Source: an uncultured virus (IMG/VR IMGVR_UViG_3300043774_000843) (Duplodnaviria; Heunggongvirae; Uroviricota; Caudoviricetes). From it: 64,000 nucleotides of DNA. Each line of letters opens with the position of its first letter. Position 1 is the stretch's first letter. The notes beneath the pieces are model-generated. The model did no database searches. It saw nothing but the letters and a program-made list of their open reading frames with translations, and was not told the origin of the DNA. The position numbers were made by a program, and so were the translations under genes. The DNA lies in IMG/VR virus record IMGVR_UViG_3300043774_000843; one strand, written 5' to 3'. Of the stretch, positions 1,229 through 28,953 are shown one piece after another.

Positions 1229-1263
1229 AGCTATTGACAAATAATGTAAAGTAACTATATTTG
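1229..1263 (+). promoter_or_regulatory. Putative early promoter (TTGACA + Bacteroidota -7 TAnnTTTG), copy 1
   Basis: AGCTATTGACAA-N15-TATATTTG; 30/35 identical to 9664-9698; heads the + strand gene block. Confidence 0.7.
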
Positions 1264-1290
1264 CATACACAAACTAAAAATCAAATTAAA

Positions 1291-3806: not shown

Positions 3807-4520
3807 ATGAAACATAAACTAATTAACACAAAAAACTACTTACTTGTTGTAAGTGATGAACAAATAAAAAAAGATGATTGGGTTTATAATGAAATCTCAA
3901 AAGAAATTTATCAGTTTGTAGAGATTAATGTTTCTTATGAGAAAAAAATCATTGCTCATTTACCACTAAACAACTATCCTATTCTTTTTACCTTTTACTC
4001 TCCAAACGTATGGGTTAGTATAAATCCAGTGATTAGTATTCCATTACTTCCCCCACTTGAACCACTTGAACAAGAATATGATGTTGAGAAGTTGGCAAAA
4101 GAATATTCCTTAAAAACAAATAAGGGACATTTGTATGATTTATATCCAAATTGTGACCAAACTTTATATGAAGTTAGTTTCGATGATTTTAAAGCAGGTT
4201 ACAACAAAGCCCGAGAGAATTTCAAATACACAGAAAGACAACTTGATGTTGCTATTGATTGGGCTATAAAAAAAGGTAGAGAAGGCGATGTTACAATTAC
4301 TGATATTGATAATTTTATCCAATCCCTATCACTACCAAAGATGCCTGTTGCTTTTAAGTGTGAGGTTGAATGGATTAACTCTAAAGAAGATGTTGGAAAT
4401 AATTTTACCAATGTTGCATTGTTTGAAGAAAGTATAAATCAGTATGATGCAATATTGATGCCTAAAACAACTACCACTCCCGAAGGACAAACTATTTGGG
4501 TAGGAGAATATATTTATTAA
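3807..4520 (+). CDS. Hypothetical protein (paralog of 13873-14451)
   Basis: Shared blocks HLPLNN-PIL, LLPPLE, GYNKA, IQSL--PKMPV-FKCE, VGEYIY; start moved to ATG 3807. Confidence 0.7.
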   Translation: MKHKLINTKNYLLVVSDEQIKKDDWVYNEISKEIYQFVEINVSYEKKIIAHLPLNNYPILFTFYSPNVWVSINPVISIPLLPPLEPLEQEYDVEKLAKEYSLKTNKGHLYDLYPNCDQTLYEVSFDDFKAGYNKARENFKYTERQLDVAIDWAIKKGREGDVTITDIDNFIQSLSLPKMPVAFKCEVEWINSKEDVGNNFTNVALFEESINQYDAILMPKTTTTPEGQTIWVGEYIY

Positions 4521-4537: not shown

Positions 4538-4759
4538 ATGAAAGGATTTTTAATTTTTTGTGCAGCAACTATTTTGTTGATGGTAGGGCTTCAATACTTT
4601 GACAGTAAGCAAGACCCTTACAATGAAGGTACTCATTGGGATTATTCAATAATGTGTGAGGATGGTTTCAAATATAAGGTTTTAAGCAGAAATAGAGGCA
4701 CTATACCTTGCAAAAATAGTGATGGAACTCTTTTAAAATGCAACCAAAAAAGATATTAA
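4538..4759 (+). CDS. Small Cys-containing protein with N-terminal TM/signal
   Basis: MKGFLIFCAATILLMVGL... Confidence 0.6.
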   Translation: MKGFLIFCAATILLMVGLQYFDSKQDPYNEGTHWDYSIMCEDGFKYKVLSRNRGTIPCKNSDGTLLKCNQKRY

Positions 4760-5281
4760 ATGAAAAAATATAAAATTGAATTATCAGAACAGCAAATGAT
4801 GTTAATTGCTAATTGTCTTGAAGATTTGTCAAGGTTTGCATCAGGTCAATCTGAAATGAGATATACAGTTGAAGAAATGTTGCGTGGCTTATCGTTTGAT
4901 GAACAAATGAAAAAACGTGATGAGGTTGAAGAATTATTAAAGAAAGCTAAAAGAGTATTATTGCCTAATTTTCCTGATAATGCAAGTAAAGGTTATAATG
5001 GTAGTGAGTTTATTGGAAATACTTATCAGATTTACAGAAGTATATTATACCAATTAGCCAAAGATAATAACTGGAATAATGTTTATTCTTCACCTGCTTT
5101 GCCAAGTGGTAATTTAGGGACAATTAAAATTGAATTGGTTGATGTAAAACAAAATACAGCCTTGCAATTGCAACAAGCTGGTGTTATAAAATCGGTTTGC
5201 GAACATAAGCATATTTCGGGTGGATATTTTGGAGGTGATAAGTATATTGTAAAATGTAAAGATTGCGATGAAATAACTTAG
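4760..5281 (+). CDS. Hypothetical protein whose C-terminal Cys/His module is cassette 1 of the array
   Basis: The ORF reads through the GTT at 5183; the tail VIKSVCEHKH...CKDCDEIT is bracketed by inverted repeats 5183-5200 and 5281-5297. Confidence 0.7.
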   Translation: MKKYKIELSEQQMMLIANCLEDLSRFASGQSEMRYTVEEMLRGLSFDEQMKKRDEVEELLKKAKRVLLPNFPDNASKGYNGSEFIGNTYQIYRSILYQLAKDNNWNNVYSSPALPSGNLGTIKIELVDVKQNTALQLQQAGVIKSVCEHKHISGGYFGGDKYIVKCKDCDEIT

Positions 5282-5294
5282 CAAACTGACTTAT

Positions 5295-5359
5295 AACGTT
5301 TTGCAGCTAATGGCTGTGAGCTTCTGAAAGTGGGCTGAAAATAGCCATTAGGTGCTGTT
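5295..5359. repeat. attC-like hairpin
   Basis: AAC GTTTT GCAGCTAATGGCTGT ... ATAGCCATTAGGTGC T GTT. Confidence 0.85.
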
Positions 5360-5405
5360 ATGTTTTAGTTTTATTTTATTAATTTTTAAAAAAAGCGAAG
5401 GAATT

Positions 5406-5780
5406 ATGAAACAATTATTTGAAGAAAAAGAACTTATTGGAAAAACAATAGCTCAGGTTTTAATGCCAAAAGAAAGCTATCAAGATATGTGGATAAAATT
5501 TACCGACAATTCTTTTGCTGTATTTGATACGGAGGATAGGACGGAAGGGTTTGGACAAGAAAGGCGTATTCTTGTTATTTCTGATTGGGAAAAAGACAAT
5601 ACAAATGAAGAATTAGTTGAGTTAGGACTAATAACAAAAGCTGAACACAAATACGCATTGGAGGAGGAAGAAAAAAGATACAAAAAAGAAAGAGCTGAAC
5701 GAGACGCTGTTGAGCAAAAAAGAATTGAAGATTACGAGAAGGAACAACTTGCCAAACTTAAAACGAAATACGATGCGTAG
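5406..5780 (+). CDS. Cassette 2 gene, hypothetical with C-terminal coiled coil
   Basis: ATG at 5406; flanked by inverted repeats 5357-5396 and 5781-5816. Confidence 0.75.
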   Translation: MKQLFEEKELIGKTIAQVLMPKESYQDMWIKFTDNSFAVFDTEDRTEGFGQERRILVISDWEKDNTNEELVELGLITKAEHKYALEEEEKRYKKERAERDAVEQKRIEDYEKEQLAKLKTKYDA

Positions 5781-5813
5781 GCTTTTAAAAATTAATAAAA
5801 TAAAATTGAACAC

Positions 5814-5940
5814 AACGGCACTCGGCTAAACTCTCGTTGCCGACTTAAATATGAGAGATAAACTTAATTAAAAGCACAAAATTATGAGTACAAAAAATAT
5901 TTCAAACGAAGAAAAAGACAATGGAGTTTTAGCCGATGTT
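5814..5940. repeat. attC-like hairpin containing the start codon of the next gene in its loop
   Basis: AAC GGCAC TCGGCTAAACTCTCGTTG ... CAATGGAGTTTTAGCCGA T GTT. Confidence 0.85.
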
Positions 5941-6114
5941 ATGCAACGTGATTTATATGCAGAATTACGTTCATCAGGTAGTATGACTTCTGACCAATGC
6001 TGTGAAGTTTTAGATTGGACAGAAAAATTACCAATACAAATTATAGGGTTAAATAATGTTAAGGTTTCAATAGTGCAAGGTGTTATTAGGGTAGAACCTA
6101 ATCATGTTGCATAA
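5884..6114 (+). CDS. Cassette 3 gene, hypothetical
   Basis: Starts inside the hairpin; its TAA stop overlaps the next TAAC; IR GTTATGCAACGTGATT / AATCATGTTGCATAAC. Confidence 0.7.
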   Translation: MSTKNISNEEKDNGVLADVMQRDLYAELRSSGSMTSDQCCEVLDWTEKLPIQIIGLNNVKVSIVQGVIRVEPNHVA

Positions 6115-6159
6115 CGTTTTGCGTATAAAAAATCGTTTTAATGTTTTTTATACGCTGTT
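6113..6159. repeat. attC-like hairpin
   Basis: AAC GTTTT GCGTATAAAAAA ... TTTTTTATACGC T GTT. Confidence 0.85.
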
Positions 6160-6265
6160 ATAACCAGTAGGGATTATTTAGTAGTAACTTTAATCGGAGA
6201 ACTGAACAAAAAATTAAAACAAAAAAAAGCGAATAATTTTTTAATAACTAATAAATAAAAACAAA

Positions 6266-6721
6266 ATGATGACAATTTCTAAATTAGCTTCTGAAATCAG
6301 GGGCGAAAACAACAAAAAAGAATCTGAAAATGATTACAAAAGATTAACTGATACTTTGAAGCAATTCAATGAAGATTTCAAAGAGGTTGTTTGTGATTTA
6401 ATTAAATGTGAGGTTAAATACGAACCTTGTTTTTGGTATAAAAGTGATAACGATGGGCAATATCATATTTTCCCACACGAAACCAAATTAGATTTAAAAA
6501 TGAATGGTGGAAGTGGTGGAACTTGTATTGCTAATTCTATTCTTTTCACATTTAATCACAATGGAGAAACAAGAAAGAAAAGATTATTTTATACGGAAAA
6601 TAAAGGTTGGTATTATATTGCTCGTAGAGGAAATCACATGAATGATGATTATTTAATAAAAGATTACAGAAAAGACTTCATATTATACCTTGATAGTTAT
6701 TTTGAAGGTGAATATAAATAA
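6266..6721 (+). CDS. Cassette 4 gene, hypothetical
   Basis: IR GTTATAACCAGTAGGG / CCCTATTGGTTATAAC, plus inner IR CAAAAAATTAAAACAAAAAAAAGC / GCTTTTTTGTTTTAATTTTTTG. Confidence 0.75.
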   Translation: MMTISKLASEIRGENNKKESENDYKRLTDTLKQFNEDFKEVVCDLIKCEVKYEPCFWYKSDNDGQYHIFPHETKLDLKMNGGSGGTCIANSILFTFNHNGETRKKRLFYTENKGWYYIARRGNHMNDDYLIKDYRKDFILYLDSYFEGEYK

Positions 6722-6800
6722 ATCATTTGTGGGTGGGCTTTTTTGTTTTAATTTTTTGAACAATAAAGTTAATTCGGAGCAGTCCACCCCTATTGGTTAT

Positions 6801-6890
6801 AACGTTTTGCAGCTAACAGAAGTGGCTGCTTGTAAGAACTTCTGAATTAAAAACAAATGCTTGTAGCAGCCATTTTTGTTAGGTGCTGTT
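6801..6890. repeat. attC-like hairpin (same family as 5295)
   Basis: AAC GTTTT GCAGCTAACAGAAGTGGCTGCT ... AGCAGCCATTTTTGTTAGGTGC T GTT. Confidence 0.85.
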
Positions 6891-6915
6891 ATAGGCTGTA
6901 AAAAATTAAAAAGCG

Positions 6916-7116
6916 ATGGAATTACAACTGATTAACTTAGGTAGAAACAACATTAACAAAACTATTGTTGTGAAAAACGAAAAAGCAATGTGGCGTGAAC
7001 TTTCTAAACATTTAATGAGCAAAGGAATTGAACTTTCACCAACTGACGAACCGAATAAATACGATGTGTATGTAGGAATGTTTAGAAATGTTGGACAGGT
7101 GATTATTAAAGAGTAA
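6916..7116 (+). CDS. Cassette 5 gene, hypothetical
   Basis: IR GTTATAGGCTGTAAAAAATTAAAAAGC / GCTTTAATTTTTTATTGCCTATAAC. Confidence 0.75.
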   Translation: MELQLINLGRNNINKTIVVKNEKAMWRELSKHLMSKGIELSPTDEPNKYDVYVGMFRNVGQVIIKE

Positions 7117-7148
7117 CTGTGCGTAGGCTTTAATTTTTTATTGCCTAT

Positions 7149-7229
7149 AACGGTAGGAATTTGCGTCTGTTGATTTTTTACCAACAAGACAATAGACGCT
7201 TAAAAAATCAATAGCGCAAATTTATTGTT
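7149..7229. repeat. attC-like hairpin (variant)
   Basis: AACGGTAGG AATTTGCGTCTGTTGATTTTTTA ... TAAAAAATCAATAGCGCAAATT TATT GTT. Confidence 0.8.
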
Positions 7230-7252
7230 GGGCGCAGTTAAATTAAATCGGA

Positions 7253-7435
7253 ATGAGCAAACAAACAACTTGGAGCGAAAGAGCAAAATGCTATGACGCA
7301 AAACACACAGAAAATGGAACAATATTATATTATGTGTGCCTTATTACAGGGAAGAAAACAGAATTGAAACACCCTGATAAACTTGCTTTATCGGCATATA
7401 TTGGGCATATAGGGGCTTTAGTGCAGTCCTATTAA
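7253..7435 (+). CDS. Cassette 6 gene, hypothetical
   Basis: IR GTTGGGCGCAGTTAA / TTAATTGCGCCCAAC. Confidence 0.7.
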   Translation: MSKQTTWSERAKCYDAKHTENGTILYYVCLITGKKTELKHPDKLALSAYIGHIGALVQSY

Positions 7436-7443
7436 TTGCGCCC

Positions 7444-7492
7444 AACTTACATCTTTGCGCTATAATGTAGGAAATAAATATTTATCAACAAT
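7444..7492. promoter_or_regulatory. Conserved array-terminal (attI-like) site, copy 1
   Basis: 41/49 identical to 19364-19412; begins at the AAC of the last cassette; does not form a hairpin. Confidence 0.65.
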
Positions 7493-7547
7493 ATTATTAT
7501 TGATAGTTTTTATTGCTTATATTTACCACAATTAAAAAACAACAAAA

Positions 7548-10946: not shown

Positions 10947-10958
10947 ATGAAATGTAAT

Positions 10959-11070
10959 TTAAAATTATAATAAAAATGATAAAAGTAGGGAGTGATTTTA
11001 GCGGAGTTGGTGCTTTTAATCAAGCACTTATGAGATTAGGTATTGATTATGAAGAAGTATTTGCTTGTGA
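10959..11070 (+). repeat. 112-bp direct repeat, copy 1 (copy 2 at 12686-12797)
   Basis: TTAAAATTATAATAAAAATGATAAAAGTAGGGAGTG...TTTGCTTGTGA appears identical at both positions. Confidence 0.9.
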
Positions 11071-12697
11071 TATGGATAAATACGCAAGACAAACTTTTAT
11101 TCATAATTACGGAGAACCTAAATATTTTCCAACAAATGTTTACGATAGAGAAATTCCAAAAGAAAGTTTAGATATTTACATGACATCGCCCCCATGCCAA
11201 GCATTTAGTTTGGCAGGTAAAAGATTAGGCAAAGATGATAAAAGGGGTATTTTGTTTTTTAACTCTCACGAATTTATCAAAGAAAACAAACCACGTTATT
11301 TTATATTTGAGAACGTGAAAGGTTTACTTTCTGATGATGGCGGTAAAACTTTTAGTGAATGGGTTAATATGTTAGGTGGCAAGTCAGTAAATGGAAATCC
11401 TGTTATTTTTCCATACGAAGAAAGCGTTCCTTATCATATATATTGGAAAGTCCTTAACGCTAAAGATTATGGCGTTCCACAAAATAGAGAAAGAGTATTT
11501 ATAATAGGTATTCGTGATGATGAAGATAATAATTTCACTTTTCCTAAAGAAGAATATCTAACTAAAAGATTAAAAGATGTACTTGAAAATGATGTTGATA
11601 AAAAATATTTTTTGAGTGAAAGATTGATGTCTTGGATTGATAGGCATAGAACAAAAAGAGGCAGTTCAAACAAATACCCATTAGATGAAAATGATGTAGG
11701 AGCTTGTATGGTTGCAAGATATGGGAAAAATGGAGCAGAGGACCCGTATATAAAAGTTAATGATTTACATATTGATAATAGTAAAGAAATTAAAGTTGGT
11801 ACATGGAGAACTCACAATGATGGTAGAGGATTTAGAGAAGTATCAGATGAAAATTGTCCTACAATTCCTGCAAGAGCAAGAGAAGATGGAAGTGGGCAAC
11901 CAGTTATAATAGAATACAATATACCTGAAATTGTTAAAGTAAGAAAGCATGAGGTTAGGATAAATGAATTACAACAATTATTAAAAAAGCATAAAAATAT
12001 ATCTATAAAAGAAATTTCAAAAAAATTAAATTGTCAAAAAACAAAAGTTGAACATTGGTTTAGAACAGATACTTTTTTTTCTATACCCGATGCTGAATAT
12101 TGGTTACAATTAAAAGAAATAATTGGTATTGATACTGATGAGTTTGATTCTGAAATTATGGAATTTGAAGAAAGAGAGGGAGTGTTTGATAAATCAAATA
12201 GGGTATATGATACACAAGGAATATCTCCGACTTTAACATCAACAAGCTCTGATGAAAAAATAATTAATAAAGTTATTCAGTTAAATCCAAGTAAAGAAAG
12301 TAATGGTAATCAACCTTATCAACATAATAGAGTTTATGATACAAAAGGTATAATGACTGCATTAGATACTGATTCAGGAAGAAAATCGGTTATGATAGAT
12401 GATTATAAAGAATCTCAAAATGAATGGATTCAAGGAGGACTACAAAAAAATCAACCAAAACAATTTAATGGCATATCCCCTTGTTTAACATCGGCTATGG
12501 GCATGGGGGGAGGACAAACGCCAATACATAATTATAATTATAAAATAAGAAGATTAACCCCAAGAGAATGTTTTAGGTTAATGGATTTTAATGATACATT
12601 CACTTGGATATGTTCAGATTCACAAGCATATAAACAGGCAGGTAATAGTATTGTTGTTGGAGTTTTAGCTAAAATAATTAATAAGTTAAAATTATAA
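10976..12697 (+). CDS. dcm: C5 cytosine DNA methyltransferase with long variable region including an HTH-like insert
   Basis: FSGVG (motif I), SPPCQAFS (IV), ENVKG (VI), QNRERVF (VIII), RRLTPREC and QAGNSI (IX, X). Confidence 0.95.
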   Translation: MIKVGSDFSGVGAFNQALMRLGIDYEEVFACDMDKYARQTFIHNYGEPKYFPTNVYDREIPKESLDIYMTSPPCQAFSLAGKRLGKDDKRGILFFNSHEFIKENKPRYFIFENVKGLLSDDGGKTFSEWVNMLGGKSVNGNPVIFPYEESVPYHIYWKVLNAKDYGVPQNRERVFIIGIRDDEDNNFTFPKEEYLTKRLKDVLENDVDKKYFLSERLMSWIDRHRTKRGSSNKYPLDENDVGACMVARYGKNGAEDPYIKVNDLHIDNSKEIKVGTWRTHNDGRGFREVSDENCPTIPARAREDGSGQPVIIEYNIPEIVKVRKHEVRINELQQLLKKHKNISIKEISKKLNCQKTKVEHWFRTDTFFSIPDAEYWLQLKEIIGIDTDEFDSEIMEFEEREGVFDKSNRVYDTQGISPTLTSTSSDEKIINKVIQLNPSKESNGNQPYQHNRVYDTKGIMTALDTDSGRKSVMIDDYKESQNEWIQGGLQKNQPKQFNGISPCLTSAMGMGGGQTPIHNYNYKIRRLTPRECFRLMDFNDTFTWICSDSQAYKQAGNSIVVGVLAKIINKLKL

Positions 12698-12797
12698 TAA
12701 AAATGATAAAAGTAGGGAGTGATTTTAGCGGAGTTGGTGCTTTTAATCAAGCACTTATGAGATTAGGTATTGATTATGAAGAAGTATTTGCTTGTGA
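12686..12797 (+). repeat. 112-bp direct repeat, copy 2; yields a truncated methyltransferase N-terminus
   Basis: Matches 10959-11070, then diverges and hits a stop within a few codons. Confidence 0.9.
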
Positions 12798-13043: not shown

Positions 13044-13873
13044 ATGAAACAAGAAAAAGAACAACAACAAGAACAACAATCAGCATTAGATTATTTTTGG
13101 AAACAAATAAGTAATAAATACTTAGATAGCTATCAAAAAGAATTATTTACTAAATTTTATGAAAAGGCTAAGTTAATTGAAATAGAACAGCAAAAAAAAA
13201 CACAATTAAAAATTAAATAAATGGAAGTAGGTCAAACATATTTAGGAAAAGAGATAAAAGAAAAGCACGAATTTAACGTGGAGGGTACTTTTGAAAGTTT
13301 TTACGCAGCTCGTACTTGGGCAGTAAATAGGGGTTATGAAATAGGCTCTATGGATGGTCGTAATCCAATAGCAATGATGAAAGGTTATGACTATGTTGCT
13401 AAATGGCATAACTTAAACAGGAAAGAACAACAATCTGTTCATGGAGTAATGATTTCAGATTATTTTAGAGAAAAGCCAGTAACAATATTAATTTTTGAAA
13501 ATTCAAATTAATATTATGAAAAAAACAACACTAATAGCAATCGCACTTTTATTGTTAATAATAATGATAACAAATGCAATTTTTAATAAAGACAAAAGTT
13601 CAGGATATATTATCGGGATTTGTGCAGGTCTATGTTTTGGTAGAATTTTAGCTGAAATAATATAATGGAAACAAAATTTAATTAAAAAGAATGAAAGACC
13701 AAAAATTTTTAATAGTAGAAAGCGCAAAAGAAGTGAATGATTATTTAGAAAAAGGATGGGAAGTAGTTTCGGTTACGCCTCAATCAGTTTCAGTTTCAGT
13801 AACTTCTTCTTCTTACGTTTACAAAGAATTAGTAGGGAAGTTTGCAGTAGTAATTCAAAAGATAAAACAATAA
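13044..13873 (+). other. Small hypothetical genes (13044-13220, 13221-13511, 13691-13873)
   Basis: ORF track; 13691 has the YLEKGWEVVSV DUF4177-like pattern. Confidence 0.6.
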
Positions 13874-14451
13874 TGGAAAATATTATAAACACAGGATATT
13901 ATATGCTAATAGTAGATGATTCAGAGATTAAAAAGGAAACCTATTGTTATGATTCTATAAACAATATTCTTGTTTTCTACAAAGGTAGCATGAAGAATAT
14001 TGGATTTCAAAAAGTGATTAGTCATTTACCACTCAATAACTCACCAATACTTGAAAATGTACCTCTTTTACCACCACTTGAAGATGATAATATACATTTT
14101 GGAGATTTAAGAAATGTAGATGTAGATTCTTTTATGAGTGGCTACAACAAAGCCGAAGAGAAGTATAATTTAACTTTAGATAAGTTGCTTGACTTATACA
14201 TTGAAGAAAGCGGTTATGGTATGGATATGTGGAGTAAAGAAGAAAATGCAACAATGAATATTGTAACTAAAATCATCCAATCCCTCCAACAACCAAAGAT
14301 GCCTGTTGGGTTTAAGTGTGAAATAGAAGCAATGAACATAGATGAAATTAGAGAACAAGGAAAAGGTTTTTTAAATACTAATACAAAGAAATTAAAAACA
14401 ATAACCAACTCACAAGGTCTTACTCAATTAGTAGGGGAATACATTTATTAA
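13873..14451 (+). CDS. Hypothetical protein (paralog of 3807-4520)
   Basis: Shared motif blocks; start at ATG 13873. Confidence 0.7.
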   Translation: MENIINTGYYMLIVDDSEIKKETYCYDSINNILVFYKGSMKNIGFQKVISHLPLNNSPILENVPLLPPLEDDNIHFGDLRNVDVDSFMSGYNKAEEKYNLTLDKLLDLYIEESGYGMDMWSKEENATMNIVTKIIQSLQQPKMPVGFKCEIEAMNIDEIREQGKGFLNTNTKKLKTITNSQGLTQLVGEYIY

Positions 14452-19010: not shown

Positions 19011-19412
19011 AATTTTTAACATAACGGTTTGCGTGTATAAGAAGTGGCGGATTAGAACTCCAAAACTTTCAGCAAACGCAGAACTTAATTAGAATTACAA
19101 AACATTAAATAACCAAGAAACCCGCCATTTTTTATACACGCTGTTAGTGGCTGGGCTTTTCACAAATTGAAACAAAATGAACAAAATATTGATATGTGTA
19201 TTATTGCAAATCGTTCTTTTTATTCCATTTTATTTGATATGGAGAAATGATTGTAAAACGATAGGTAAAGACAACTTGGCTGTTAGCTTACAAGAACGAT
19301 TTTTGTATTGGCTAATATTTTGTCCAATTTGGTTGGTTGGTGTGTTGGATTAGCCTTGCCACTAACTTACTTCTTTACGCTACAATTAAGGAAATAAAAA
19401 GTTATTAACAAT
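19011..19412. mobile_element. Integron-like cassette array 2: one hairpin, one intact cassette, terminal site
   Basis: Hairpin 19023-19145: AAC GGTTT GCGTGTATAAGAAGTGGCGG ... CCGCCATTTTTTATACACGC T GTT. IR GTTAGTGGCTGGGCT / AGCCTTGCCACTAAC. Terminal site at 19364-19412. Confidence 0.8.
19177..19353 (+). CDS. 58-aa two-TM cassette protein
   Basis: Hand translation MNKILICVLLQIVLFIPFYLIWRNDCKTIGKDNLAVSLQERFLYWLIFCPIWLVGVLD; fills the cassette. Confidence 0.7.
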   Translation: MNKILICVLLQIVLFIPFYLIWRNDCKTIGKDNLAVSLQERFLYWLIFCPIWLVGVLD

Positions 19413-19451
19413 TGCATAATTAAATAAAATAATTACTAATTTTGACCACAA

Positions 19452-27378: not shown

Positions 27379-28497
27379 CTAAATGGAGCGAGGTTCTTCA
27401 ACCAACGCACAACCTAATGGTTCACGTTTGCGATTGAGAGCAATGCCCTTGCTCAAAATATTTTTTGCAGCGTTTGTGTCAGCATTACTGATATGACCGC
27501 AACATTGACACACGAACTCACTTTGACTAATTCTGTTCTTTGCATCTTTTTCTCCGCACTCGTTACAAGTTTGGCTTGTGTATTTAGGATTTACTGCAAA
27601 TACATTTGTTTTGTATTCAAGCATTTCACGAAACATTCCCCAACCACAATCAAGTATGTGTTTTGAAAGATTTTTATTCTTTGACATATTTTTTATACTC
27701 AAATCCTCTAAATAAACCATGTGGTATTTTTTAGCCAACTTGGTAGATTCTTTATGCAAAAAATCTTTCCTTACATTTGATATTGTATGATGCAACAGAC
27801 TTAGTTTCTTTACCTGCTTTTTCCAACGATTACTTCCTTTCTTTTTTCTTGACAAACTTCTATTTTCTATGCGAAGTTTTCTTTCGTGTTTAGAAAAATG
27901 TTTTGGGTTGTCAATGAAGTTATCGTTGCTGTCTGCGACAAAATGAGTTACTCCCATATCAATTCCTATAACTTGGCTCTCGTTAGGATTTGAAATATTT
28001 TTACTCACTTCATCACAGACAATGCAGATAAAAAAACCTGTGGGTTCTATTACTATTTGTGCTGTCTTTATTTTTCCTATTATTGGAGATTTACCCTTGA
28101 AAAATTTTAATTCACCAATCTTAGGAAGTTTTATTTTATTATTTTGCGTTAATTCTGCTGATTTAAAAAGTATTGATTTATAATTTTTCTTTGATTTGAA
28201 TTTTGGAAAACCACCACCTGATTTACAGGTTCTAAAAAAGTTTTTGTATGATTTATCTAGCCTTTCTAAAGAATTTTGTAGGCTTTGACTTGGCACATCT
28301 GCAACCCAATCAATATCTTTTATTTCGGTTAGCTGTTTCATTAAATCGTATGCAGAAACATTCAGTTGCTTGTTTTTATATGCTGAAATTTTAATTTCTA
28401 ATCCCATATTATAAACCAAACGACAAACACCAATCCAAGACGAAATTCTTTCCTCTTGAACCTTAGTTAGTTTTAATTTTCTTTTATAGGTTAGCAT
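27379..28497 (-). CDS. tnpB: TnpB RNA-guided endonuclease
   Basis: GIDMG, YLEDL, NADTNAA RuvC triad intact; TSQTCNECG...CQCCG zinc finger. Confidence 0.95.
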   Translation of the reverse strand: MLTYKRKLKLTKVQEERISSWIGVCRLVYNMGLEIKISAYKNKQLNVSAYDLMKQLTEIKDIDWVADVPSQSLQNSLERLDKSYKNFFRTCKSGGGFPKFKSKKNYKSILFKSAELTQNNKIKLPKIGELKFFKGKSPIIGKIKTAQIVIEPTGFFICIVCDEVSKNISNPNESQVIGIDMGVTHFVADSNDNFIDNPKHFSKHERKLRIENRSLSRKKKGSNRWKKQVKKLSLLHHTISNVRKDFLHKESTKLAKKYHMVYLEDLSIKNMSKNKNLSKHILDCGWGMFREMLEYKTNVFAVNPKYTSQTCNECGEKDAKNRISQSEFVCQCCGHISNADTNAAKNILSKGIALNRKREPLGCALVEEPRSI

Positions 28498-28554
28498 AAT
28501 TATTTTCAAAATTAATAAAAAAGGTATATATTTGCGTCGTATATAACATATTTT

Positions 28555-28953
28555 ATGAACAATAGGTGGAAATCTTCAAAACACGCAGTATATAATTGCT
28601 CTTATCATTTAATTTGGTGTCCTAAATATCGTAGGAAAGTTCTTACCGATGGTATTGATGTTAGATTAAAAGAATTGTTGTTACAGAAAGCATCAGAACA
28701 TGGTTGGGTTATTGAAAATATGGAAGTTATGCCTGACCACGTTCATATATTTATTAAAGCTACAACAAACGATTCTCCTGTTTATATTGTTAGTCAATTA
28801 AAAGGTTTTACTTCATTTACTTTAAGAAACGAGTTCCCTAAACTAAAATCAAGATTACCTACATTGTGGACACGAAGTTATTATTGCGAAACTATTGGAC
28901 ATATTTCAGAAGCTACCATAAAAAAATATATTGATGAACAAAAAAACAAATAA
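28555..28953 (+). CDS. tnpA: IS200 Y1 HUH transposase
   Basis: HLIWCPKYRRKVL, DHVHIF (HUH), LWTRSYY, YIDEQ. Confidence 0.95.
   Translation: MNNRWKSSKHAVYNCSYHLIWCPKYRRKVLTDGIDVRLKELLLQKASEHGWVIENMEVMPDHVHIFIKATTNDSPVYIVSQLKGFTSFTLRNEFPKLKSRLPTLWTRSYYCETIGHISEATIKKYIDEQKNK

Follow-up and report, generated by a model that had tools for sequence, protein, structure and literature searches.

Introduction

In the classical integron, as laid out in the accessible text of PMC5027507, it is the bottom strand that is recombined, and cassette genes are read away from attI, from Pc. Measured against that text, the phage system described below is alike in that cassettes are taken up, with a 5'-AAC-3' crossover, by a single non-hairpin site where the array ends, and in that hairpin-bounded single-gene cassettes have complementary ends with one hairpin strand apparently favoured. 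It departs from the classical arrangement in that its ORFs face the site, the hairpin comes before the gene, the coding strand is the favoured one and no Pc reads into the array. Moreover, the classical integron keeps IntI beside attI, whereas no recombinase was found in the window and the enzymes encoded beside related arrays score below the IntI cut-off. The attG secondary sites of integron integrases are short double-stranded targets distant from the integrase gene; the phage site differs from these in being reused, conserved across lineages, duplicated within a genome and equipped with a full second box.

Closer to home, Qi et al. 2023 (PMC9892861) reported phage CALINs including that of Polaribacter phage P12002L, which, going by the accessible portion of that paper, shares with our system the hairpin family, a methyltransferase cargo and the absence of an integrase beside the array. 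That portion treats the elements as classical attC, ascribes their 'divergent directions' to mosaicism and names neither a docking site nor reversed polarity. On our reading, P12002L attC2 (L172:5700-5800), which follows the AAC of the last cassette, would be an array-terminal docking site and attC1 a family hairpin. A 'reverse' integron is known from Treponema denticola (PMC4909258, accessible sections), and its integrase gene is co-oriented with the cassette genes, as in the recombinase-bearing relatives considered here; there, however, intI, attI and Pc precede the first cassette, whereas the phage site and recombinase gene follow the array. We found no description of a reversed cassette system or of such docking sites in the literature searched, subscription journals and bioRxiv supplements lying outside that search.

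Our subject is a 64,000-nucleotide stretch (hereafter the window) from an uncultured virus of the Caudoviricetes, with 29% GC and phage-type genes (endolysin, tail fibre, RNA ligase, methyltransferase), whose sequence is best represented in lake-water metagenomes. We consider it very probable, on the strength of sequence comparison, that each of two 49-mers in this window opens on an orphan docking site, attI-like in character and belonging to an integron-like phage cassette system, as in the full proposal given in the Discussion.

Results

Two similar sites close the cassette arrays

An earlier note on this DNA had proposed that two cassette arrays end in one and the same 49-bp site, a candidate attI lying downstream of the genes. 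The two copies recur as claimed, at 7444-7492 and 19364-19412, with 41/49 positions identical, while the next-best ungapped match to the 49-mer on either strand of the whole window reaches only 30/49. Each begins at the AAC of the last cassette (Table 1). Set against the reverse complement of the sequence preceding the site, the start of cassette E (GTT at 7227) agrees at 9/10 positions for site 1 and that of cassette F (GTT at 19143) at 8/10 for site 2. The copies are, moreover, non-palindromic and stand in place of a hairpin: predicted folding of the + strand gives -0.9 and -1.5 kcal/mol for the sites versus -11 to -21 kcal/mol for the six window hairpins. The plural 'arrays' is apt for array 1, where five hairpins are each followed by a short gene; 'array 2' amounts in the window to a single cassette.

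Table 1. Coordinates of the cassettes, sites and associated elements in the window.
Feature	Position	Strand	Details
Promoter-like element	1232..1265	+	Heads co-directional small-gene region; candidate driver of array 1, judged from sequence only
Eroded cassette, far end of array 1	5163..5296	+	Right hairpin arm only
Cassette A	5297..5815	+	Hairpin H1 (5295-5359), ORF 5406-5780; own ends pair 32/40
Cassette B	5816..6114	+	Hairpin H2 (5814-5940), ORF 5884-6114
Cassette C	6115..6802	+	Hairpin H3 (6113-6159), ORF 6266-6721
Cassette D	6803..7150	+	Hairpin H4 (6801-6890), ORF 6916-7116
Cassette E, adjoins site 1	7151..7445	+	Hairpin H5 (7149-7229), ORF 7253-7435
Docking-site core 1 (putative)	7444..7462	+	AAC crossover triplet 7444-7446, 6-bp spacer, second box 7453-7460
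Module 1, lineage-specific tail	7463..7531	+	Ends in -7-like box (7518-7525) and CCACAA; directed away from array
Cassette F, adjoins site 2	19025..19365	+	Hairpin H6 (19023-19145), ORF 19177-19353
Docking-site core 2 (putative)	19364..19382	+	Anatomy as core 1; second box 19373-19380
Module 2, tail	19383..19451	+	TAATTTTG at 19437-19444, then CCACAA

A short core within a lineage-specific module

How much of the 49 bp matters can be judged from other viruses. The full 49-mer type is limited to the window's phage lineage, where four copies keep in register for ~88 bp, a register that runs through the -7-like box and CCACAA. A 19-base pattern search, by comparison, finds the core (AAC, 6-bp spacer and a box like the hairpins' second box) kept across 36 viral loci, most of which have a different tail after the core and then small genes without a recombinase domain; the lineage-specific tail is absent from the small-phage family, and unrelated phages have only the first ~19 bp in common. 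Because the core is conserved beyond the lineage and the full 49-mer is confined to it, we read the element as a ~19-bp core inside a duplicated core-plus-promoter module, the promoter role being suggested by the consensus. So the repeat noticed earlier is real; its functional part is probably ~19-20 bp rather than 49, and the remainder belongs to a lineage-specific ~88-bp module. In cellular genomes (596 Gb) the same 19-base pattern occurred three times, in no record with Bacteroidota in its title; inspected by eye these matches showed no cassette and were treated as chance.

Scored on a second-box profile built from 31 hairpins of other lineages, the box of site 1 reaches 8.9 bits and that of site 2 5.5 bits, values to be set against the YAAC positions of the window (n=1235), 0.24% of which reach 7 bits and 0.57% 5 bits. 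The fit to the hairpin profile is best at a spacer of 6. An IHF-like motif is unsupported in the window's two sites (at least two mismatches to the consensus). Terminal sites of four other loci (L146, L145, L154, L172) contain that consensus perfectly, 26-42 bp from the AAC; it is present in 1% of random 70-mers.

The neighbouring -7-like boxes raise the question of whether the site is in fact a phage promoter or activating element, conserved for transcription, with its AAC merely a secondary, attG-like target for cassettes. As the earlier note had it, each site is followed by a -7-like box and CCACAA, the boxes lying at +74 (one mismatch, site 1) and +73 (site 2, where TAATTTTG fully matches the Bacteroidota -7 consensus) from the AAC. 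This fixed distance of 73-74 bp in four copies speaks for a promoter, as do an ATG 51-78 bp after the AAC in the small-phage family, a core TCTTTGC resembling the end of the TAnnTTTG consensus (PMC9723704, accessible text) and the failure to find a recombinase in cis. However, neither 49-mer contains a TAnnTTTG -7 box within itself, the TA of that consensus is missing from the core, whose -33 position would come to lie in the changeable end of the cassette, and no comparable element stands ahead of the window's other -7-like boxes. Nor would transcription account for many independent insertions at exactly this AAC, or for a box that outscores 99% of the 1235 YAAC positions on a hairpin-derived profile. 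The earlier note would have yielded to a motif standing before many genes without cassettes; instead, the motif occurs twice in 64 kb and follows a cassette each time. We therefore regard a site that is promoter first and recombination target second as unlikely; a dual promoter and recombination role is possible. The box beside the site is directed away from the array. By pattern search the + strand holds no -7-like box between 7518 and 19437, and a sigma-70 scan with a model that does not cover Bacteroidota promoters returned 13 sites versus 14.6 expected.

Hairpin-first cassettes whose genes face the site

Aligned over 40 bases, the start of each of the six cassettes matches the reverse complement of its own end at 24-32 positions. 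Across the window's lineage and its relatives, 42 distinct hairpins align to one common design, namely TAAC, five bases opposite one, four pairs, the second box and then a variable stem and loop, with the 5-versus-1 bulge on the 5' arm beside the AAC. In classical attC sites, going by the accessible text of PMC5027507, extrahelical bases lie near L'' and the central spacer is unpaired, features that the phage hairpin consensus lacks. In predicted folds of the six window hairpins the coding strand closes the terminal AAC/GTT stem every time (6/6) and the other strand never (0/6). The H3 pattern is also present in other viral records; blastn of array 1 against plasmids gave no match and an Rfam scan of the window at gathering scores gave 0 matches. 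Only one cassette in the window is eroded; it occupies the far end of array 1 and forms an in-frame part of ORF 4760-5281. Its right arm scores 21.8 bits on a right-arm profile, second best in the window, and it has no left arm.

The earlier note also had the cassette genes facing the site, opposite to the classical integron, and this holds throughout: all 45 cassette ORFs of at least 35 aa have this direction, and 18 begin within the hairpin, these being calls of the cassette parser that were not hand-checked one and all. The ORF of cassette B is an instance, beginning within H2 and stopping on the TAA of the closing TAAC. Methyltransferase-family Pfam matches were obtained for 7/44 scanned cassette proteins. 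Gene-less palindromic mini-cassettes of 26 bp, whose sequence includes the loop of the short hairpin type, stand directly before the site in four loci (L008, L081, L102, L108).

Elsewhere in the window, a 573-aa C5 methyltransferase gene sits between two 116-bp direct repeats (10955-12797) and is absent from G002, a relative of the window phage discussed below; as a side reading, such repeats may offer a second route of gene gain or loss. An exact 217-bp duplication at 2297-2861, overlapping a 116-bp repeat that also occurs at 1576, yields two copies of a 61-aa ORF and may be either a recent duplication or an assembly artefact. Two related ORFs (3807-4520 and 13756-14451) are 71% identical over 104 bp near their ends and have no Pfam or PHROG match.

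Empty and filled alleles of the site

The insertion-platform role proposed earlier was to be checked by looking for empty sites and for new cassettes adjacent to the site, and relatives supply both. In L057 the conserved left flank is joined straight to the core, i.e. the allele is empty, and nine relatives with the same type of flank (136-146/150 identical) carry differing inserts of 277-1213 bp, all of which begin and end in TAAC, with breakpoints resolved to within that TAAC. A second empty allele occurs in L097 (complete genome G030), whose relatives, matched at the flank by eye on 40 bases, hold 6, 6, 1 or a 26-bp mini-cassette. L110 equals L106 on both sides (120/120, 122/122) and has in addition one ~1.3-kb cassette at the site. 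More broadly, a complete cassette lies directly upstream at 28/46 distinct family junctions, as defined by their downstream tail, versus 0/14 non-family matches and 9/967 control TAAC positions, and no hairpin follows the site at any of the 35 junctions with enough sequence. The 18 junctions failing the cassette test comprise six with <400 bp upstream, four with mini-palindromes, three that look empty and five unassigned; counted among junctions with sufficient upstream DNA, the failures are 12/40. Taken together, empty and filled alleles with breakpoints in the AAC, and extra cassettes beside the site in several relatives, support by comparison the view that the site is a cassette insertion platform.

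The window phage itself can be compared with G002 (62% complete). Up to the AAC of site 1 the two are identical at 4748/4751 bases (99.94%); beyond it, G002 has five extra cassettes after cassette E and then its own variant of the site. This site of G002 and the 2.3 kb after it share only 76-94% identity with the window, so the difference at array 1 is, as far as sequence alignment tells, that of a recombinant with its breakpoint at the AAC and not a clean insertion. At array 2 it is the far end that varies, G002 having three extra cassettes there with the breakpoint in TAAC, and H6 stays with its downstream gene where these three upstream cassettes are missing; judging from this comparison the mobile unit is therefore hairpin-then-gene. 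Site 2 is found behind four different last cassettes (window and G002, L106, L110, and a contig joint in the runs X3, X5 and X7). In the last case a C-like cassette abuts site 2 in contigs of 3/4 runs, joints called at 90% likeness that could include other phages and whose depths are similar to those of the phage's flanking contigs. Where the window has the site after cassette F, X5 and X7 show a new hairpin instead, and contigs of these two runs carry a G002-like cassette at the far end of array 2.

These data bear on another explanation, in which the site is a mere fixed array end, the scar of a first integration, and cassettes are gained mainly by hairpin-by-hairpin recombination at any point of the array or by homologous exchange between phages. 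The three far-end cassettes of G002 array 2 and the mosaicism of the phage relative to G002 are what it would predict, and so are the orthologous arrays of L075, L077 and L092, which have no cassette in common. Against it, nine different single or double inserts at one empty allele each must have used the site, additions lie beside the site in L110 and in X5/X7, and the eroded cassette sits at the far end. Hence we judge a passive array end to be quite unlikely. The earlier note had named the accumulation of variable cassettes at the opposite end as its refutation; extra cassettes lie beside the site in G002 array 1, L110 and the contigs of X5 and X7, and variation at the opposite end occurs once, at G002 array 2. 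That difference fits hairpin-by-hairpin excision and counts against strict site-only gain. From the three arrays without a shared cassette, insertion order is unreadable.

A short Xer-like recombinase next to related arrays

No tyrosine recombinase is present among the 115 ORFs of the 64-kb window, part of a genome that may carry one elsewhere, and none was found in G002 or in the 34 records with the core pattern, five of which are at least 90% complete; resolvase PF00239 and the recombinase of L162 were likewise absent from these five (0/5). A tblastn search of the window and of the loci covered (E<=0.5), with six family recombinases as queries, detected no remnant. A 376-aa ORF at 27379-28509 (- strand) was considered as an integrase and rejected, being the TnpB of an IS605-type element (TnpB and Y1 transposase, 27379-28953) in the phage early region.

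The hairpins lead further. Among 24 records with an exact H3 hairpin, six encode a tyrosine recombinase, and each of these genes begins 39-54 bp downstream of a same-strand, non-hairpin AAC site, which in four cases (L146, L147, L162, L165) closes a hairpin-bearing array. Recombinases next to related arrays measure 234-277 aa. The three for which the full length was scanned have an XerA-like model as their best match; against TIGR02249 (integron integrase), with its cut-off of 265 bits, they score 150-168 bits, in two stretches, a pattern which fits loss of the IntI-specific insertion (PMC8138268, accessible text). Recombinase-linked sites differ in sequence from the window's sites, several scoring poorly on the second-box profile, and by eye L147 and L166 have a spacer of 4 bp. 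We infer by analogy that the window core may be served by such a short Xer-like recombinase. In the cultured Cellulophaga phage Ingeline, cassettes are followed by an AAC site and, 49 bp later, an integrase (by eye). This integrase (Ingeline_1, L173:2170-3792) has 263 aa, and one hairpin there apparently encloses the whole ORF 2603-2818 in its loop. Record G042 (L145:8358, L170) has an apparently empty site beside a recombinase and, where an array ends, a second copy of the site, after which come the first codons of the recombinase and no more. Two plasmid recombinase matches are longer proteins.

Alternatively, a classical IntI of the host might handle the hairpins as ordinary attC with inverted ORFs. 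The AAC crossover and self-complementary cassette ends are integron traits (PMC5027507, accessible text), and IntI1 did recombine one strand of the array-terminal P12002L element 'attC2' (PMC9892861, accessible text). Yet the only family hairpin tried with IntI1, P12002L_attC1, gave no verified junction according to that same text, the hairpins have a 5-versus-1 bulge beside the AAC rather than extrahelical bases near L'', and array-adjacent recombinases stay well below the TIGR02249 cut-off. Integrons are also reported to be very rare in Bacteroidetes, for which the available text of the IntegronFinder 2.0 paper (PMC9024848) gives one complete integron. Use of a host IntI thus seems highly improbable to us.

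Discussion

Comparison between relatives lets us read off unit boundaries, a (T)AAC crossover, the terminal position of the site, gene direction and turnover at the site. By this comparison, units enter and leave by crossover inside (T)AAC, and the array has the site fixed at its downstream end. We propose that a short Xer-like tyrosine recombinase acts in trans, coming from the host or from a co-infecting phage. On double-stranded DNA it would bind both the AAC box and, 6 bp from it, the second box, and it would recombine this docking site with the folded coding strand of the hairpin of a cassette circle. In tyrosine recombinases, cleavage takes place at the spacer's 5' edge. The newest cassette would land beside the site and shift older ones upstream, where they may erode or leave by hairpin-by-hairpin excision. 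Because cassette genes run co-directional with the phage early region, no Pc would be needed and expression could come by read-through. As for the remainder of the 49 bp, it would be part of the duplicated ~88-bp module, whose promoter-like end may serve the next gene. Judging from the -7-like boxes and the hairpins shared with a Polaribacter phage, the phages using this system probably infect Bacteroidota.

Where does this leave the label attI? A non-hairpin insertion site at the array end is what we find; it is not the attI of a classical integron, because no IntI is present. The system works like an integron yet fails three of its defining features. Array 1, with at least two attC-like sites and no integron integrase nearby, falls under the definition of a CALIN, a term that implies a decayed integron and is contradicted by the active cassette turnover of the phage system. 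Standard integron finders would miss or mis-orient such arrays.

To our minds there is an even chance of a wider picture, in which many small and medium freshwater phages retain no more than a ~20-bp site and draw accessory genes, DNA methyltransferases in particular, from a common cassette pool by means of the borrowed recombinase of a co-infecting phage, an enzyme that recombines folded single strands without the IntI insertion. If true, recombination of folded strands without this supposedly essential insertion would make the system a way of capturing cassettes in its own right, the mirror image of the integron and at work chiefly among phages. The system as described also makes two questions about integrons testable in harmless cultured systems, the phages Ingeline and P12002L: does recombination of hairpins require the IntI-specific insertion, and is the polarity of cassettes fixed? 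For phage biology, it provides a precise mechanism for part of genome mosaicism, in which genes, with likely anti-restriction methyltransferases among the cargo, are gained at a defined site and not by illegitimate recombination.
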